From positions 26,119 through 90,118 of the forward strand of contig CANFCX010000002.1 in assembly GCA_947445225.1 (NCBI GenBank): a stretch of 64,000 nt of DNA, written 5' to 3'. A model generated the notes under the pieces. That model was not told the origin of the DNA. It saw only the letters and a program-made list of their open reading frames with translations, and ran no database searches. Position numbers and translations under genes: made by a program. The stretch comes from Rhodospirillales bacterium (GTDB taxonomy: Bacteria > Pseudomonadota > Alphaproteobacteria > CACIAM-22H2). Of the stretch, positions 3,907 to 29,946 are shown in pieces (position 1 is the first letter of the stretch; each line of letters starts with the position of its first letter).

Positions 3907-4476
3907 TCAGCCGCCGGCGGGCCCGGGTGGGCTTGCCACTTCAACGGCAACGGCTTCCGGCCCTTTTTGCGCGTGAACGACACGCATCTTGACGGTCTGG
4001 CCAGGTGTCAGCCCGCTTAGGCCGGCATTGCGAAGAATGGTGATGTGCAAGAACACATCCTTGCCGCCATCGTTCGGCGAAACAAACCCATAACCCTTGA
4101 GGGCGCTGAACCATTTAACGACACCATCCATCGGTGTGCCGTCATCGGCCGCGGGCGCCGCGAACCTGGGCGCCGGAGCGTCCATCCGCGACCGCGGCGG
4201 CGGCGCCTGCGCCGTGCTCAAATCAACATCGAGGACACGGAGCACCTGGCGACCCTTCGGGCTCTGCCCAATTTCGGCGAGCAAGCCCGCACCTTCCGCC
4301 ACGGCCTCAAAACCGGCGAGCTTCAGCACCGATAGGTGAAGGAAGGCTTCGGATGAACCGTCGACCGGGGTCACGAATCCGAATCCCTTGGCGACGTTGA
4401 ACCATTTGACGGTGGCGCGAACGCGGGTCCCGTCCCCGTCGGCCCGAAAATCGGGCTGTTCGAATTGCCTTTGCAC
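3907..4476 (-). CDS. cold-shock protein with two tandem cold-shock domains
   Basis: Two copies of the CSD RNP motifs (VVKWFSALKGYGFVSP... and VKWFNVAKGFGFVTP...). Confidence 0.8.
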   Translation of the reverse strand: MQRQFEQPDFRADGDGTRVRATVKWFNVAKGFGFVTPVDGSSEAFLHLSVLKLAGFEAVAEGAGLLAEIGQSPKGRQVLRVLDVDLSTAQAPPPRSRMDAPAPRFAAPAADDGTPMDGVVKWFSALKGYGFVSPNDGGKDVFLHITILRNAGLSGLTPGQTVKMRVVHAQKGPEAVAVEVASPPGPAGG

Positions 4477-4635
4477 TGGAGCGATCCACTCGAAAGAAAT
4501 GCGTCAATATGACGCGCCCGCGCGCCGAGATTAGCACTCCTGCCGGGGCACGGACAATCGCCTTCGGCTCGCGACGCTCAGGCGATATCGGCGGTCTTCG
4601 TCGCCGGTACCCGCCGCCTAGCATGCAAACCGCAC

Positions 4636-21538: not shown

Positions 21539-22201
21539 ATGCAGCAATCCGTGCGCATCGCACCGTCGATCTTGTCGGCTGATTTCGCCCGGCTTGGTGA
21601 AGAGGTACGCGCGGTAACCTCGGCGGGCGCGGACTACATCCATGTCGACGTCATGGACGGCCACTTCGTGCCCAACATCACGATCGGCCCGGGAGTCGTG
21701 AAGGCGCTGCGACCCCACACGAAGCTGGTTTTCGACGTCCATCTCATGATCGCCCCGGTCGACCCGTTTATCCGCGATTTCGCGGAGGCCGGCGCCGACA
21801 TCATCACGGTTCATCCGGAATCCGGTCCACATCTGCATCGCACGGTGCAACTCATCAAATCCCTGGGAAAGAAGGCGGGCGTATCGCTGAACCCGGCGAC
21901 CCCGGTGGAGGCGATCGATTTCATCCTTGGCGACATCGACCTTGTCCTGGTCATGTCGGTCAATCCGGGCTTCGGCGGTCAGGCCTTCATCGCCAGCCAA
22001 CTCGACAAAATTCGAGTTTTGCGCCGGCGCATCGATGCCCTGGGCCGGAATGTCGATCTAGAAGTCGATGGCGGAATCAATCTCGAGACCGCGCGCAGCG
22101 CCGCCGCCGCCGGCGCCGATGTTCTGGTTGCCGGCACCGCGACATTCGCCGGCGGCCCGAATGCCTACGCCGAAAACATTCGGCGCCTCAGGAACGGCTG
22201 A
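21539..22201 (+). CDS. rpe: ribulose-phosphate 3-epimerase
   Basis: [29 protein letters not shown] signatures. Confidence 0.9.
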
Positions 22202-22213
22202 ACGCCGGTCGGA

Positions 22214-23791
22214 ATGGAAGGCACCGCCGGGAAGGCGCCCCGTTCTCGCCCGCCCACGTTGATCGCGCGGCTGTCGCGGCTGTGGCGTGACTGGGCCACC
22301 GGCGCGGTTCCACGGCCGCATCGCATTGCCTCCAGCCCTTGGGCCGGCGACCCGAACCGTGACGCCCGAATTTTCCTCGAAGAAAAAGCCCGAGCCGAAG
22401 CCGACAATTCGGCTGGCGCCCGCTTCCATTCCTTTGAGTGGCTGAACGATTTGCGCGCGTCCGGGGACGCGGATGCGCGCGGCCTGGCTCTCGGCGAGAT
22501 TTCGTCCTGGATCGACCTCCATGGCGATCCTAGTACGGTTTCCTGGCGCGCCGACATTCTGGGCGCGCGCTTGACGTCATGGCTGCGCGCTTACGATTTT
22601 CTCAACCCCGACGCCGATCTCGACCTTCGTCTCCGCCGCAGTTTCGCCCGGCAACTCCTCCGTCTCGCGCGCAGCGCCGGCACCGGGCCCGACGGAGTCC
22701 CCCGCCTCCTCGCGATCAAGGGATTGGTCTTTGCCGGGGCCTGCCTGCCCGGGCGGGACGCCCTCCTCACCCGTGGTCTGACCCTGCTCGAGCGTGAGCT
22801 TGGACGCCAAATCTTGGTTGACGGCGGACATGTCGAACGTTCGCCGGCCGCCCAACTCGAAGCGCTGCGTGTTCTTGTCGAGCTGCGCGTCCTCTTGAGC
22901 GAATGCGGCATCGGCGCGCCCGAGGCCCTTCATCACGCCATCGACCGCGTTGCTCCGATGCTCCGCTTCTTTCGTCATGGCGATGGCGGCCTTGCCCTGT
23001 TCAACGACAGCGGCGAGGCGGACGGCACGGAGATCGACGCTGTTCTTGCGGCCAGCGAAGCCAAGGGCAAACCACCCGCCGCGGCGTCGCATCTGGGCTT
23101 CCAGCGCCTGAGCGCGGAGCGCACGCTGGTTATCTTCGATGCCGGCGCGCCGCCGCCACCGGGGCTTGATCGGAGAGCCCATGCCGGCACGCTCAGCTTC
23201 GAGATGAGTGCCGGCCGCGAACGCCTGATCGTCAATTGCGGGGCACGCGCGGATTCGTCCGCGTGGCGGACCGCCCAACGCGCCACCGCCGCCCACAGCA
23301 CCGTCGTGGTTGCCGACACCAATTCGTCGGAATTGCTCGCCGATGGCGGTCTCGGCCATCGGCCGGTGACCGTGGAATGCCAACGCGCCGAGGCCGATGA
23401 AAATATCTGGATCGAGGCCAGCCACGACGGGTACCGCACGTTTGGCGTCATCCACCATCGCCGGCTTTATCTTTCCGCAGCCGGCGACGATTTGCGCGGC
23501 GAGGACCGTCTGACGGGTACCGCGGGGCGGCCTTTTGCCCTCCGCTTCCACATCCATCCCGAGGTGCAGGTGTCGCTCGCGCAAAATGGCGCCATGGTGC
23601 TGTTGCGGCCGCCGCGCGGGCCGGGCTGGCGCCTTCAGGTCGCGGGCGGGCGGATCGGGCTCGCGGAAAGCGTCTATTTGGGCAAGGCCGGCAAACCCCG
23701 GCGTTGCGAACAGATCGTCGTCGACGGAACGATCGGAACCGACGGCGCGGCGGTGAAATGGGCCATCAAACGCCTTCCGACGAAGGCTTGA
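22214..23791 (+). CDS. heparinase II/III-like family protein
   Basis: Alpha/alpha-toroid plus beta-sandwich family signatures (HAGTLSFEMSAG, ILVDGGHVERSP); conserved neighbour of rpe in alphaproteobacteria from memory. Confidence 0.55.
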   Translation: MEGTAGKAPRSRPPTLIARLSRLWRDWATGAVPRPHRIASSPWAGDPNRDARIFLEEKARAEADNSAGARFHSFEWLNDLRASGDADARGLALGEISSWIDLHGDPSTVSWRADILGARLTSWLRAYDFLNPDADLDLRLRRSFARQLLRLARSAGTGPDGVPRLLAIKGLVFAGACLPGRDALLTRGLTLLERELGRQILVDGGHVERSPAAQLEALRVLVELRVLLSECGIGAPEALHHAIDRVAPMLRFFRHGDGGLALFNDSGEADGTEIDAVLAASEAKGKPPAAASHLGFQRLSAERTLVIFDAGAPPPPGLDRRAHAGTLSFEMSAGRERLIVNCGARADSSAWRTAQRATAAHSTVVVADTNSSELLADGGLGHRPVTVECQRAEADENIWIEASHDGYRTFGVIHHRRLYLSAAGDDLRGEDRLTGTAGRPFALRFHIHPEVQVSLAQNGAMVLLRPPRGPGWRLQVAGGRIGLAESVYLGKAGKPRRCEQIVVDGTIGTDGAAVKWAIKRLPTKA

Positions 23792-23890
23792 CCGCGGGAG
23801 ATCCCGGAAATCGCGCCAGGAAAGGCGTCGCGGCGCCTTGACGTTCATGCCATGAACGGGGTATCGTTCACGATCTGAACAAGGATACCC

Positions 23891-24520
23891 TTGGCGAAAT
23901 CACAGGCATCGACGGGCGCGGGCGACACCGAAATCACACTCGGTCTGCTCAATGCGGTCGAAAAAAACAGCGATCTCACGCAGCGATCGGCGTCCCGCGA
24001 TCTCGGTATCGCGCTGGGTCTGACGAACGCCTATCTGCGCCGCTGCGTCAGCAAGGGGCTGATCAAGGTCAGGCAAATTCCCCGGAAGCGTTATGCGTAT
24101 TATCTGACGCCCAAGGGATTCGCCGAAAAAAGCCGGCTGACCGCGGAATACCTGTCCTCGTCGTTCAATTTTTTTCGCAAGGCCCGCAGCCAGCTCTCGG
24201 AATTGTTCGTGTTGTGCGAACAACGAAACTGGCGCCGCATCGCCCTTTGGGGATCCAGCGAGTTGGCCGAAATCGCCACCTTATGCGCGCGCGAACATGG
24301 CGTCGTTCTGGTCGGCATCCAGGATTCGAGAAGTAAAGCCGACACTTTCGCCGGGCTGAAGGTGTCAAGGCTGCCAGGCCAGCTTGGCGCGGTCGATGCC
24401 GTCATCCTCACCGAAACGCGGGCGCCGCAGGCCGCCTTCGACGAAGCCGCGGCAACCTTCGATCCAGAACGGATCCTGACGCCCAATCTGCTGCGGCTCG
24501 CGCATGGACGGAACCGCTGA
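23891..24520 (+). CDS. putative winged-helix transcriptional regulator, first gene of glycan locus
   Basis: N-terminal wHTH-like segment (LTQRSASRDLGIALGLTNAYLRRCVSKGLIKV...YAYYLTPKG) plus C-terminal alpha/beta domain; family unassigned. Confidence 0.4.
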   Translation: MAKSQASTGAGDTEITLGLLNAVEKNSDLTQRSASRDLGIALGLTNAYLRRCVSKGLIKVRQIPRKRYAYYLTPKGFAEKSRLTAEYLSSSFNFFRKARSQLSELFVLCEQRNWRRIALWGSSELAEIATLCAREHGVVLVGIQDSRSKADTFAGLKVSRLPGQLGAVDAVILTETRAPQAAFDEAAATFDPERILTPNLLRLAHGRNR

Positions 24521-24521
24521 C

Positions 24522-25025
24522 ATGCGGCGATGGTACGTCGCCCACACCCAGCCGCGCGCCGAATCCCAGGCCGAAATGCATTTGCGCCGCCAGGAATTCG
24601 ACGTCTACCTGCCGCGCCACAAAAAACAGCGCCGGCATGCGGGCCGCGCGGAAATCGTCGCGGCACCGTTGTTTCCGGGCTATCTGTTCGTGGGCATCGA
24701 CATGGAGCGCCAGCGTTGGCGTTCCATCGATTCCACGGTCGGCGTTCACCGGCTGGTATCGGGCGGAGACGGACCGATTCCCGTGCCGCCGGAGGTGATC
24801 GAGGCGATCCGCGAGCGCGAGGATGATTGCGGCTTCGTGGTCCTCGGGCGGGGGACAACTTTCGCGAAGGGCGATCGGATACGCGTGGTCGCCGGAGCAT
24901 TGAGCGATCAAGTCGGGTTGTTTGACGACGGGTCCGATTCCCAGCGTGTTGTTGTCCTGCTTCAACTTCTCGGCCGCCCCGTGCGCGTGAGGCTTCCGCT
25001 CGACGCGGTGGCCGCCTGCGCCTAG
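24522..25025 (+). CDS. NusG-family paralog (RfaH/UpxY-like operon-specific antiterminator candidate)
   Basis: NGN domain signature WYVAHTQPRAE...LFPGYLFV and KOW-like C-terminus; ~168 aa; sits directly upstream of the glycan operon leader. Confidence 0.7.
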   Translation: MRRWYVAHTQPRAESQAEMHLRRQEFDVYLPRHKKQRRHAGRAEIVAAPLFPGYLFVGIDMERQRWRSIDSTVGVHRLVSGGDGPIPVPPEVIEAIREREDDCGFVVLGRGTTFAKGDRIRVVAGALSDQVGLFDDGSDSQRVVVLLQLLGRPVRVRLPLDAVAACA

Positions 25026-25124
25026 GCGTAATTGTTCCTGGCGCTCGCCCTCGGCGAGCCCAGTTTTCCGCGGCTTAGGGCGCGGTTGGAGTCAAGTTCC
25101 ACTGGGTGAAGGCTTTCACCCGGA

Positions 25125-25138
25125 CTGCGGTAGCTTTG
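25125..25138 (+). promoter_or_regulatory. ops-like element (ctGCGGTAGCtttg) in operon leader
   Basis: GCGGTAGC at 25127-25134 matches the 8 core positions of E. coli ops GGCGGTAGCGTG on the non-template strand, 32 nt upstream of the first biosynthetic ATG (25166). Confidence 0.45.
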
Positions 25139-25165
25139 CCGCGATCGTAAGGTTTCTTTCCCAAA

Positions 25166-28647: not shown

Positions 28648-29946
28648 GTGCGCCCTCGCCTTGTCCTATTTTTCCTGTCGCCGCGGTTGATCGATTGCGA
28701 CAGCTACTTGCCCGTGGCGATGGAGATGAAGGCGCAGCTTCCCGATCTCGACATCCGGTTCGTTACCTTCAGCCGGGAAAACTACGATGATGTCCGCAGC
28801 AACCCCACTTTGGCGGCGGGCCTCGCCCGCTGTGGCACACTCGCCTGGGTCGGCGGCGAGGGGCCGGGCGGTCGGTTACGACGGTCGCTGCGTCGAATCC
28901 GCAAATTCGCGGAACTCGCCGCAAGCCTTATCCGGCGACCCGGGGCCATGCTCTTTCACGGGCGGCAGTATGTCGAACGCCCCTACCGCGCGCTGTTTTG
29001 GCTGAACCGCATGCTTGGCGGGCGCGGTTTCGTCCTGGCCAGGATCCGCATGGTTGACGAGGGGCACCATCCCCATCGGCTGAGCGAGTTCGAGGTCATG
29101 GGGTCGCGCCGACTCTCGTGGCTTGATCGCCTTCGCGGGCGCGAGAGCGACGGACTTGTGCACTACCACGACCGCCAGGAGATGTATCTCCGCTCTCTCG
29201 CGAAATTTGGACGCACAGACTGGCCGCGGCGCGCCAAAGTCGGGTTGCCCAGCGCCTTGCCTTCATGGCGGGCGCTTATCGCCGAGGCGGTGGAGACCGA
29301 ACGCCAAGCGCTCGCCGCCGCGGGCCGCAACGTGGACGAGATCTACAGTTTCTTTTCTGCCAAGGGTTACAGCTCCACCCATCTGCGCACGCCGGAGTCG
29401 GCGCAACGCACCTTCGACAACGTCGTGCGTAGTTTGACGACCCTGCGGCCGCGCGCGACGATTCTGCTTCGGCCCCATCCCCTGGCCCTGCGCGAACCTT
29501 GGTTCAAGGCGGCGTTGGAGGCGATCGGGAACCCCAATGTGGTTCTCAGCTACGCCCATCCCGAAGTCATGGTCGCCCTGTCGCGCCGTGCCTTGGTCAA
29601 CAATCCCACCAACATCCTGTTCACCACGCCCTTCGGCCGATTCATCGATTGCAGCGACTATCGCCCGTCACATTATGAGCAAGTCGGCGAGGCTTCGCTG
29701 GCGGAGGGATATGGCGTCGTGTTCGTCAACCCCGCCCGCGACGATTTCGCCCAGCGCCTCGAATGGGCGCTCGGCGAGGAGCCGTGGCAAGACGTGGCCG
29801 TCTTCGCCAAGCGGGAGCGACTGAGCCGCGACAATCCGCCCTCGATCGCCGAAATGCTGAACTGGTTCGAGGCGTCCATGCCAAACGCCGATCCCATCCC
29901 CTCGGGCATAAGCAACGCCGCTAGCAGTCCGGGGCAACGACCGTGA
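28648..29946 (+). CDS. hypothetical protein, possible GT-B-like/Capsule_synth-like transferase
   Basis: No firm motif; length and position in glycan operon. Confidence 0.3.
   Translation: MRPRLVLFFLSPRLIDCDSYLPVAMEMKAQLPDLDIRFVTFSRENYDDVRSNPTLAAGLARCGTLAWVGGEGPGGRLRRSLRRIRKFAELAASLIRRPGAMLFHGRQYVERPYRALFWLNRMLGGRGFVLARIRMVDEGHHPHRLSEFEVMGSRRLSWLDRLRGRESDGLVHYHDRQEMYLRSLAKFGRTDWPRRAKVGLPSALPSWRALIAEAVETERQALAAAGRNVDEIYSFFSAKGYSSTHLRTPESAQRTFDNVVRSLTTLRPRATILLRPHPLALREPWFKAALEAIGNPNVVLSYAHPEVMVALSRRALVNNPTNILFTTPFGRFIDCSDYRPSHYEQVGEASLAEGYGVVFVNPARDDFAQRLEWALGEEPWQDVAVFAKRERLSRDNPPSIAEMLNWFEASMPNADPIPSGISNAASSPGQRP

Follow-up and report, generated by a model that had tools for sequence, protein, structure and literature searches.

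A winged-helix regulator and an RfaH-like NusG paralogue head an alphaproteobacterial polysaccharide locus with an ops-like leader element: a putative two-tier control cassette

Among the paralogues of NusG, RfaH of Escherichia coli is the model of sequence-specific elongation-factor recruitment, acting at the ops element (GGCGGTAGCGTG) in the leaders of lipopolysaccharide, capsule, haemolysin and F-pilus operons, and this element belongs to the class II pauses. RfaH is autoinhibited by an alpha-helical C-terminal domain which refolds to a beta-barrel, with contributions from the E48-R138 salt bridge, I93 and F130. In Bacteroides the paralogue UpxY and the small partner regulator UpxZ lead each capsular polysaccharide locus, and in Bacillus velezensis and relatives the cis-encoded paralogue LoaP has been reported to depend on a hairpin in the leader RNA. 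In the current study, a 64,000-nucleotide (nt) stretch of DNA from a Rhodospirillales bacterium (hereafter the window; contig CANFCX010000002.1, positions 26,119 to 90,118) was analysed, in which a winged helix-turn-helix (wHTH) regulator gene (23891..24520), the gene of an RfaH-like NusG paralogue (24522..25025) and a leader hairpin abutting an ops-like element (25102-25137; together the hairpin-ops) precede a polysaccharide gene array.

The occurrence of RfaH homologues in Alphaproteobacteria has been documented previously: in its account of gene clusters, Wang et al. 2020 (PMC7593976) assigns 18% of rfaH genes to this class, describes non-CL1 clusters (CL2-CL8) that neighbour envelope or polysaccharide genes, one of them with an HTH regulator as neighbour, states that recruitment is known for E. 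coli RfaH only and argues that the ops contacts arose late. These clusters probably describe the same clade as the family to which the window protein belongs. The same account of CL2-CL8 in Wang et al. (PMC7593976) contains no ops-like site, hairpin or operator, and a literature search found no description of the extended motif, the ops-hairpin or the operator. While the alphaproteobacterial homologues and one HTH-neighbour cluster have therefore already been published, the hairpin-ops, the operator and their coupling appear to be new.

Both open reading frames (ORFs) are present where an earlier note on this DNA had placed them, being the first two genes of a + strand polysaccharide array of at least 38 kb, and the 1-nt gap between them was confirmed, as the regulator gene ends in TGA at 24518-24520, base 24521 is a c and the following ATG starts at 24522. 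Third-position GC bias of the coding type is apparent in both ORFs (the window has ~64% GC), and public gene calls on identical metagenome contigs report the same products of 209 and 167 amino acids (aa), separated by the same gap. A second in-frame ATG lies at 24504; homologues and the public gene calls favour 24522 as the start of the downstream gene.

The 167-aa product of 24522..25025 (+ strand) was assessed by hidden Markov model (HMM) searches, structure prediction and comparison with solved structures. The strings WYVAHTQPRAE and LFPGYLFV, from which the earlier note had deduced an NGN domain, are present in the translation and the domain was verified by Pfam (residues 3-97, 86.6 bits). 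The tail described there as short and KOW-like is KOW-like but not short, since the C-terminal domain is full-size (~55 aa) and forms a five-strand beta-barrel in the AlphaFold2 model (predicted local distance difference test score, pLDDT, 90.3). Pfam and AlphaFold2 superposition thus reveal the RfaH arrangement of an NGN domain followed by a single KOW-size C-terminal domain; binding to RNA polymerase is predicted only. In the HMM comparison, which the earlier note had proposed, RfaH (TIGR01955) was the best of the NusG-family models with 130.1 bits, against 82.3 bits for UpxY (NF033644, cutoff 100), 61.1 bits for housekeeping nusG (TIGR00922, cutoff 135.7) and 56.4 bits for LoaP (NF033641, cutoff 125). 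The comparison with RfaH and UpxY as leading genes of polysaccharide loci was apt, RfaH being the closer of the two. Twenty-eight aligned relatives match all NusG-family models, with best E-values of 5.7e-39 for RfaH, 8.6e-24 for UpxY and 7.3e-21 for nusG. E. coli RfaH is also the best solved relative, matched over its full length (E = 1.9e-12), and the NGN domain superposes on RfaH structures at 1.2-2.5 Å with 29-34% identity. Taken from the sequence, these data support the assignment of the product as a specialised NusG paralogue of the RfaH type that is distinct from housekeeping NusG.

An ungapped alignment with E. coli RfaH revealed that H20, R23, Q24, T72, G74 and V75 of the ops-contact set are retained, H20, R23 and Q24 being part of the pocket that reads T6. 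At positions related to autoinhibition E48 is replaced by A, and I93 is kept, as are the counterparts of F130 (here F134) and R138 (here R142). As AlphaFold2 predicts beta structure for nearly all experimentally proven fold-switchers (PMC9247905), the predicted beta-barrel leaves fold-switching of the RfaH type possible, and for this family it is regarded as putative. The NGN domain of the family also carries a near-invariant basic loop, K-x-R-R-H-A-R (residues 35-41, window 24624-24644), whose residues K35, R37, R38, H39, A40 and R41 are absent from E. coli RfaH at the aligned positions; this loop is a candidate nucleic-acid contact.

The ops-like element TGCGGTAGCTTT (25126..25137, + strand; family consensus TGCGGTAGCGTG) was identified by comparative analysis. 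In a one-genome-per-species scan 563 relatives of the RfaH-like protein were retrieved, and the counts of genome loci given here refer to the best 80 or so of these 563. Enrichment of k-mers downstream of the RfaH-like genes returned GCGGTAGC in 57 of 81 loci, located 51-118 nt past the stop codon, where about 0.4 loci with GCGGTAG would be expected from its background frequency in the same 1.35 Mb. In an anchored alignment (consensus TTTCACCCGGACTGCGGTAGCGTGG) the invariant parts are CACC and GCGGTAGC, the latter being identical to positions 2-9 (G2-C9) of E. coli ops, and T11 is conserved in at least 90% of sequences. The ops element (GGCGGTAGnnTG) that RfaH systems carry in the transcribed leader is accordingly represented here by TGCGGTAGC(G)TG in the same 57 of 81 loci. 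In E. coli, C3-G8 are needed for RfaH recruitment and not for pausing, for which T11-G12 are needed (Zuber 2018, PMC5995543), and the invariant bases of the alphaproteobacterial element therefore correspond to the recruitment core. The window copy keeps this core despite its diverged 3' end. A consensus search by itself was uninformative, as E. coli ops with up to two mismatches matched the window 70 times with 70 matches expected; the match at 25126 gained its meaning from the comparative analysis.

The element is preceded by a leader hairpin, CTGGGTGAaggcTTTCACCCGG (25102..25123, + strand), recognised by RNAfold and a covariance model, whose 3' arm TCACCCGG(A) is conserved in sequence and recurs across loci as TCACCCGGA. 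Hairpins that use the 3' arm (T)CACCCGG(A) are predicted by RNAfold in 54 of 56 distinct homologous leaders, with variable loops, a mean minimum free energy of -14.8 kcal/mol and a mean z of -1.9, and in the 5' arm complementarity is maintained rather than sequence. Since loop lengths vary, MAFFT left the 5' arm unaligned, and its alignment was replaced by a covariance model built from 20 seed sequences in a single register, which detected 59 sites in 81 sources and exactly one in the window (25099-25141). In the resulting alignment, which was fitted to the structure so that its figures lean towards structure, 90.1% of cells are paired, compared with 62% and 50% after a shift of the partner by one column. 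Non-Watson-Crick cells in the stem comprise 87 G.T and 30 A.C, an excess that points to a structure of the sense strand (RNA) rather than a palindrome in double-stranded DNA. The base of the stem lies 11-12 nt upstream of T11, the expected pause position, a spacing that matches the geometry of the his pause and would, on this geometric likeness only, suit a hairpin-stabilised (class I, his-type) pause. The invariant 3' arm could be read as upstream fork DNA, in the non-template strand or as RNA.

Other elements of the leader region may be noted here. An Rfam scan of the whole window at gathering thresholds found nothing, and a terminator scan yielded a single weak terminator-like stem, CGCCTGCGCCTAGGCG followed by TAATTGTT (25013-25028, over the RfaH-like stop codon), which is at chance frequency. 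In Bradyrhizobium retamae (locus L078) two tandem hairpin-ops copies (4296-4339 and 4535-4579, ~240 nt apart) follow the RfaH-like gene.

The regulator gene (23891..24520, + strand, TTG start) encodes a 209-aa protein which the earlier note had described as a small wHTH protein of unassigned family. Its family is indeed unassigned, the nearest curated model, MarR_EPS (TIGR04176), reaching 63.7 bits against a cutoff of 88 over residues 14-105 only; it is not a small single unit, as Pfam, NCBIfam and AlphaFold2 together indicate two domains, namely a winged helix at approximately residues 14-80 and a C-terminal Rossmann-like domain at approximately residues 100-205 without a GxGxxG motif. Pfam HTH_24 matches residues 14-59 (35.6 bits, E=7e-9) above its gathering threshold of 21.9, and MarR_2 (13.9 bits) does not reach its threshold of 27. 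The family comprises 6213 homologues, mostly of ~214 aa. The C-terminal half has no Pfam match and no match to a PDB sequence; AlphaFold2 models it confidently as an alpha/beta domain (pLDDT ~90), for which Foldseek returned generic Rossmann folds only (TM-scores of ~0.36 or lower). A Rex-like regulator, i.e. a wHTH joined to an NAD-binding Rossmann domain, was considered and is unsupported by these searches. The domain is a candidate ligand sensor or dimerisation module. The protein resembles the MarR-family regulators of exopolysaccharide loci covered by MarR_EPS in its winged helix and its locus association, and differs from them in that the 105-position model fits its N-terminal half, to which ~100 aa of Rossmann-like domain are added.

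The only promoter-like site between 23500 and 25600 is a sigma-70-type promoter of the regulator pair at 23838..23867 (+ strand), with a -35 box TTGACG, an 18-nt spacer and a -10 box TATCGT, found by promoter scan and conservation. Of 72 related loci, 61-62 have the sequence cTTGACGTTCA ahead of the wHTH gene, and TA is conserved at the -10 distance. Superimposed on this promoter are two palindromes, the putative operators O1 (GTTCATGCCATGAAC, GTTCA-N5-TGAAC; 23843..23857), which covers the -35 box and spacer, and O2 (GTTCACGATCTGAAC; 23866..23880), which covers the -10 box and the likely transcription start. In 1.41 Mb searched, the start of a wHTH gene follows within 200 nt for 114 of 116 occurrences of GTTCA-N5-TGAAC; at least one is present in 67 of 74 loci, and the entire 64-kb window holds just the two at 23843 and 23866. 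The common layout upstream of the wHTH gene is TTGACG, GTTCA-N5-TGAAC and TA of the -10 box, and 46 of 74 loci have a second palindrome, either ~25 nt upstream of O1 or just downstream of it, over the -10 box and transcription start. Given the overlap of operators and core promoter, the wHTH protein most likely represses its own promoter. Nine hairpin-ops sites that are displaced or orphan also have the palindrome 68-198 nt upstream, and at most of them it follows a TTGACA -35 box and overlaps the -10 position with its 3' half. This joint travel of operator and hairpin-ops at secondary promoters is the strongest evidence that the two proteins would serve one regulon.

Relatives of the RfaH-like protein number in the hundreds at 50-62% identity, many of them named 'transcriptional antiterminator RfaH' by the Joint Genome Institute (JGI). 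The best 80 of the 563 are almost all alphaproteobacterial (Rhodospirillaceae, Pseudolabrys, Xanthobacteraceae, Bradyrhizobium and Ferrovibrio), and the nearest, at 96% identity, is from a Rhodospirillaceae metagenome-assembled genome (MAG) from Lake Baikal. Four of the best loci (L013, L048, L061 and L079) are from MAGs labelled Acidiferrales, Udaeobacter, Hydrogenedens and Chloroflexota, which could reflect mis-binning or horizontal transfer of the cassette. A 209-aa homologue is encoded immediately upstream on the same strand in ~72 of 80 loci; approximately seven loci have a standalone RfaH-like gene instead of the pair. Standalone genes with no wHTH neighbour were seen in L008, L009, L036, L040, L045 and L052 (53-59% identity), most being flanked by opposite-strand ORFs, and in L009 and L045 a hairpin-ops lies 3.8-5 kb away. 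The element is displaced in L002, L004, L009 and L045 of the genome set and divergent in L042. In L002 (13208-13250), L169 and L183 the hairpin-ops directly follows the wHTH gene with no RfaH-like gene between them, the RfaH-like gene of L002 being 4.7 kb from the site.

As independent confirmation, a scan of metagenome contigs for TCACCCGGANTGCGGTAGC returned at least 120 loci, and among the matches listed an RfaH-like gene lies directly upstream, within 200 nt, in 85 of 104 evaluable loci, a further 14 having no RfaH-like gene on the contig. Twelve of these 14 were examined: approximately eight are in intergenic leaders and three are likely chance matches within coding sequence. Those genes downstream of the orphan leaders that were checked by Pfam are of the Bac_transf, HAD, NeuB or NTP-transferase type, and one upstream gene is Wzy_C-like. 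In several loci of the genome set the distance between the RfaH-like stop codon and ops is only ~50 nt, of which ~30 are taken by the hairpin; this leaves no room for a promoter, and the element would therefore be reached there by read-through from an upstream promoter.

Based on these findings we propose, as a reading that we hold to be reasonably probable, that the locus carries a two-tier control cassette in which initiation is controlled by the wHTH protein and the hairpin-ops is where the RfaH-like factor is loaded for antitermination of a long operon. In the first tier, a wHTH dimer would bind GTTCA-N5-TGAAC over the -35 box, spacer and -10 box of its own promoter, most likely as a repressor, and gating might respond to a ligand bound by the Rossmann-like domain. 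In the second tier, transcription would run through the regulator and RfaH-like genes into the leader, where RNA polymerase is expected to pause at the hairpin-ops and to expose GCGGTAGC on the non-template strand as in E. coli ops. The NGN domain of the RfaH-like protein would be loaded onto this paused complex, keep out NusG and Rho and confer processivity over at least 38 kb, an arrangement that would suit a 38-kb operon exposed to Rho. As its gene precedes its loading site, the factor would be supplied by early transcripts, and later transcripts would be antiterminated. The pair seems to act in trans as well, as displaced hairpin-ops sites at other polysaccharide operons share the promoter palindrome.

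Several observations weigh against this proposal. The RfaH score of 130.1 bits stays below the TIGR01955 cutoff of 144.5 bits, and the ops-reading residues K10 and R73 are replaced in the family by Q and V, respectively, alanine at either position being known to cripple recruitment of E. coli RfaH (PMC5995543). The window ops lacks the pause dinucleotide T11-G12, for which it has TT (TTTG against GTGG, the 3' end reading GCTTTG), and the window copy scores 30.2 bits by the covariance model, compared with a typical 50-66. Of 81 genome loci, 24 lack an exact GCGGTAG in the 600 nt that follow the gene; some of these are contig ends or standalone genes, and one (L053) has a variant site directly after the gene according to the covariance model. 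Covariation in the stem is modest, with 14 cells changed on both sides and two-sided changes in four pairs, because the 3' arm hardly varies, and to this must be added the lean of the pairing figures mentioned above. Regarding transcription into the leader, at least one locus (L203) has operator-bearing sequence between the RfaH-like gene and the ops site, and a promoter inside the RfaH-like coding region is possible. Binding of the palindrome by the wHTH protein is suggested by their co-occurrence only, and all that goes beyond sequence conservation, every mechanistic step included, is what we infer from it.

Comparison with described systems serves to define what is shared and what is particular to this locus. 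With E. coli RfaH/ops it shares the two-domain NusG-paralogue fold, the position of RfaH as best HMM and PDB match, an identical G2-C9 core with T11 mostly kept in the leader of long polysaccharide operons, and a first downstream gene that tends to lack a Shine-Dalgarno (SD) motif. It differs from that system in that the factor is encoded in cis directly upstream of ops and paired with a dedicated wHTH regulator, in the loss of K10, R73 and E48, and in its leader, since E. coli ops is a hairpin-less, backtrack-type pause whereas the alphaproteobacterial ops is abutted by a conserved hairpin. UpxY/UpxZ is comparable as a NusG paralogue and partner regulator leading a polysaccharide locus; here, in contrast, the partner is a wHTH protein with palindromic operators, whereas UpxZ inhibits other UpxY proteins; the two genes stand in the opposite order, and the locus has a DNA signal of the ops type. 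LoaP has in common with the window factor its encoding in cis and the hairpin in the 5' leader, but its targets are polyketide clusters and its model falls well short of cutoff here; we know of no ops-like DNA core for LoaP.

The dependence of LoaP on a leader RNA hairpin nonetheless raises an alternative mode of recruitment, LoaP-like or mixed, in which the paralogue or a partner would read the nascent RNA hairpin and its TCACCCGGA arm rather than non-template DNA, GCGGTAGC then being mainly a pause signal or part of the RNA ligand. The presence of the hairpin in 54 of 56 leaders, with a 3' arm as conserved as the ops core, the loss of K10 and R73 from the DNA-reading pocket of E. coli and the invariant basic loop that E. 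coli RfaH lacks would all agree with such a mechanism. We nevertheless deem it unlikely, as the invariant bases coincide exactly with G2-C9 of ops, the C3:G8 pair and the G4-A7 loop read by E. coli RfaH in DNA among them, H20, R23 and Q24, which make up most of the T6 pocket, are conserved, and the LoaP model scores 56 bits where RfaH scores 130. Still less probable, and in our estimation very unlikely, is that the hairpin-ops is no loading site at all but serves in attenuation, in RNA processing or stability or as a second wHTH site, with the paralogue acting through its local concentration in cis and with no sequence-specific recruitment, a mode that has been proposed for paralogues of recent origin. 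Such a role finds some backing in the encoding of the factor in cis immediately upstream, in the NusG-like beta-barrel predicted by AlphaFold2, in the replacement of E48 of the autoinhibition salt bridge by A and in the ancestral cis mode of action discussed by Wang & Artsimovitch (PMC7819879). The hairpin is not followed by a U-tract, however, and is therefore not an intrinsic terminator, the operator GTTCA-N5-TGAAC differs in sequence from the hairpin arms, and the excess of G.T over A.C argues against a site in double-stranded DNA. Standalone RfaH-like genes and orphan hairpin-ops sites moreover imply action in trans and hence a specific signal, and near-identity with E. coli ops would need coincidence.

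With regard to the sign of regulation, the wHTH protein might be an activator of the cassette and of the secondary promoters, by MerR-like binding in the spacer or as a class II activator. An operator within the spacer, where MerR-type activators bind, and the second copy ~25 nt upstream of the -35 box in many Hyphomicrobiales loci, a position typical of activators, lend this some plausibility; we consider it rather unlikely given that the operators overlap the -35 box and the -10 box or transcription start, in the window and at secondary promoters alike, which is the usual layout of MarR-type repressors, and that the Pfam MerR match is insignificant (E = 0.15). As to the gene itself, identity with the organism's housekeeping NusG, which the presence of an NGN domain and a KOW-size C-terminal domain would allow, receives practically no credence and was rejected on HMM scores and gene context. 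Its nusG score is less than half of the cutoff, neither secE nor rplK is adjacent, the neighbours being the wHTH gene and a glycosyltransferase family 8 (GT8)-like gene, and the gene pair sits in variable polysaccharide loci; the opinion of the earlier note that it is not the essential NusG was thus upheld.

The presumed target of the cassette comprises ~35 tightly packed polysaccharide and nonulosonic-acid genes on the + strand, extending at least from 25166 to 62949 according to Pfam and coding-frame analysis. Its first gene, the GT8-like one, starts 30 nt after ops position 11, and the array further encodes a KpsC/S-like protein, methyltransferases, three cytidine monophosphate (CMP)-sugar transferases, two NeuB synthases (39740.. 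and 55705..), a KdsA-like protein, a PseB-like dehydratase, HisH/HisF-like proteins, three AsnB-like amidotransferases, a carbamoyltransferase, GT2 and GT4 enzymes and a fused ATP-binding cassette (ABC) exporter; the ORFs at 28648, 35817, 44588 and 47627 have no Pfam match. Judged by this gene content, the large polysaccharide locus that the regulator pair opens is of the nonulosonic-acid type. The first gene to follow ops in other loci is always a sugar or polysaccharide gene, of a family that differs between loci (Polysacc_synt_2, GFO/IDH, ABC exporter, AsnB, DegT, GT2, GT4 and 2-epimerase were seen). SD-like motifs precede 4 of 56 first genes compared with 21-24% of other ORFs, and this depletion may be a weak hint of RfaH-style ribosome recruitment, weak because start codons were assigned by a naive rule.

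Upstream of the regulator pair are the housekeeping genes leuC, leuD, leuB, asd and rpe and a heparinase II/III-like gene, as assigned by Pfam. The rpe and heparinase II/III-like pair (window 21539-23791) also precedes the cassette in L003, L004, L010, L050, L053, L063 and L076, which suggests, from synteny, that several Rhodospirillales-type loci share a conserved chromosomal position at which the polysaccharide locus varies.

The mechanism of RfaH is known from enterobacteria only and, according to reviews, the recruitment of other paralogues is unknown. The clade described here, in which an ops core can be recognised, adds a second system at a large phylogenetic distance, and it bears on the age of ops recognition and its tolerance of the loss of K10 and R73, on whether a hairpin-stabilised pause replaces or adds to the backtracked ops pause, and on how an initiation regulator and a processivity factor are coupled within a single cassette. 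Used jointly, the covariance model and the palindrome of the operator permit regulon prediction for surface polysaccharide loci in soil and aquatic Alphaproteobacteria, including Bradyrhizobium. A wider reading, which we regard as possible if doubtful, is that of a composite loading signal, as yet unreported for NusG paralogues and consisting of an RNA pause hairpin at his spacing and the DNA core of ops, that is read by an RfaH-like factor encoded in cis, while the operator of a dedicated wHTH/Rossmann regulator marks every promoter of the regulon; the reader would lack two of the ops-reading side chains of E. coli RfaH and possibly autoinhibition as well. If this is true, ops recognition would be common to the alpha- and gammaproteobacterial RfaH lineages, by descent or transfer, and not a late enterobacterial refinement, and control of initiation and elongation would be co-inherited as a portable cassette placed before interchangeable polysaccharide gene sets.

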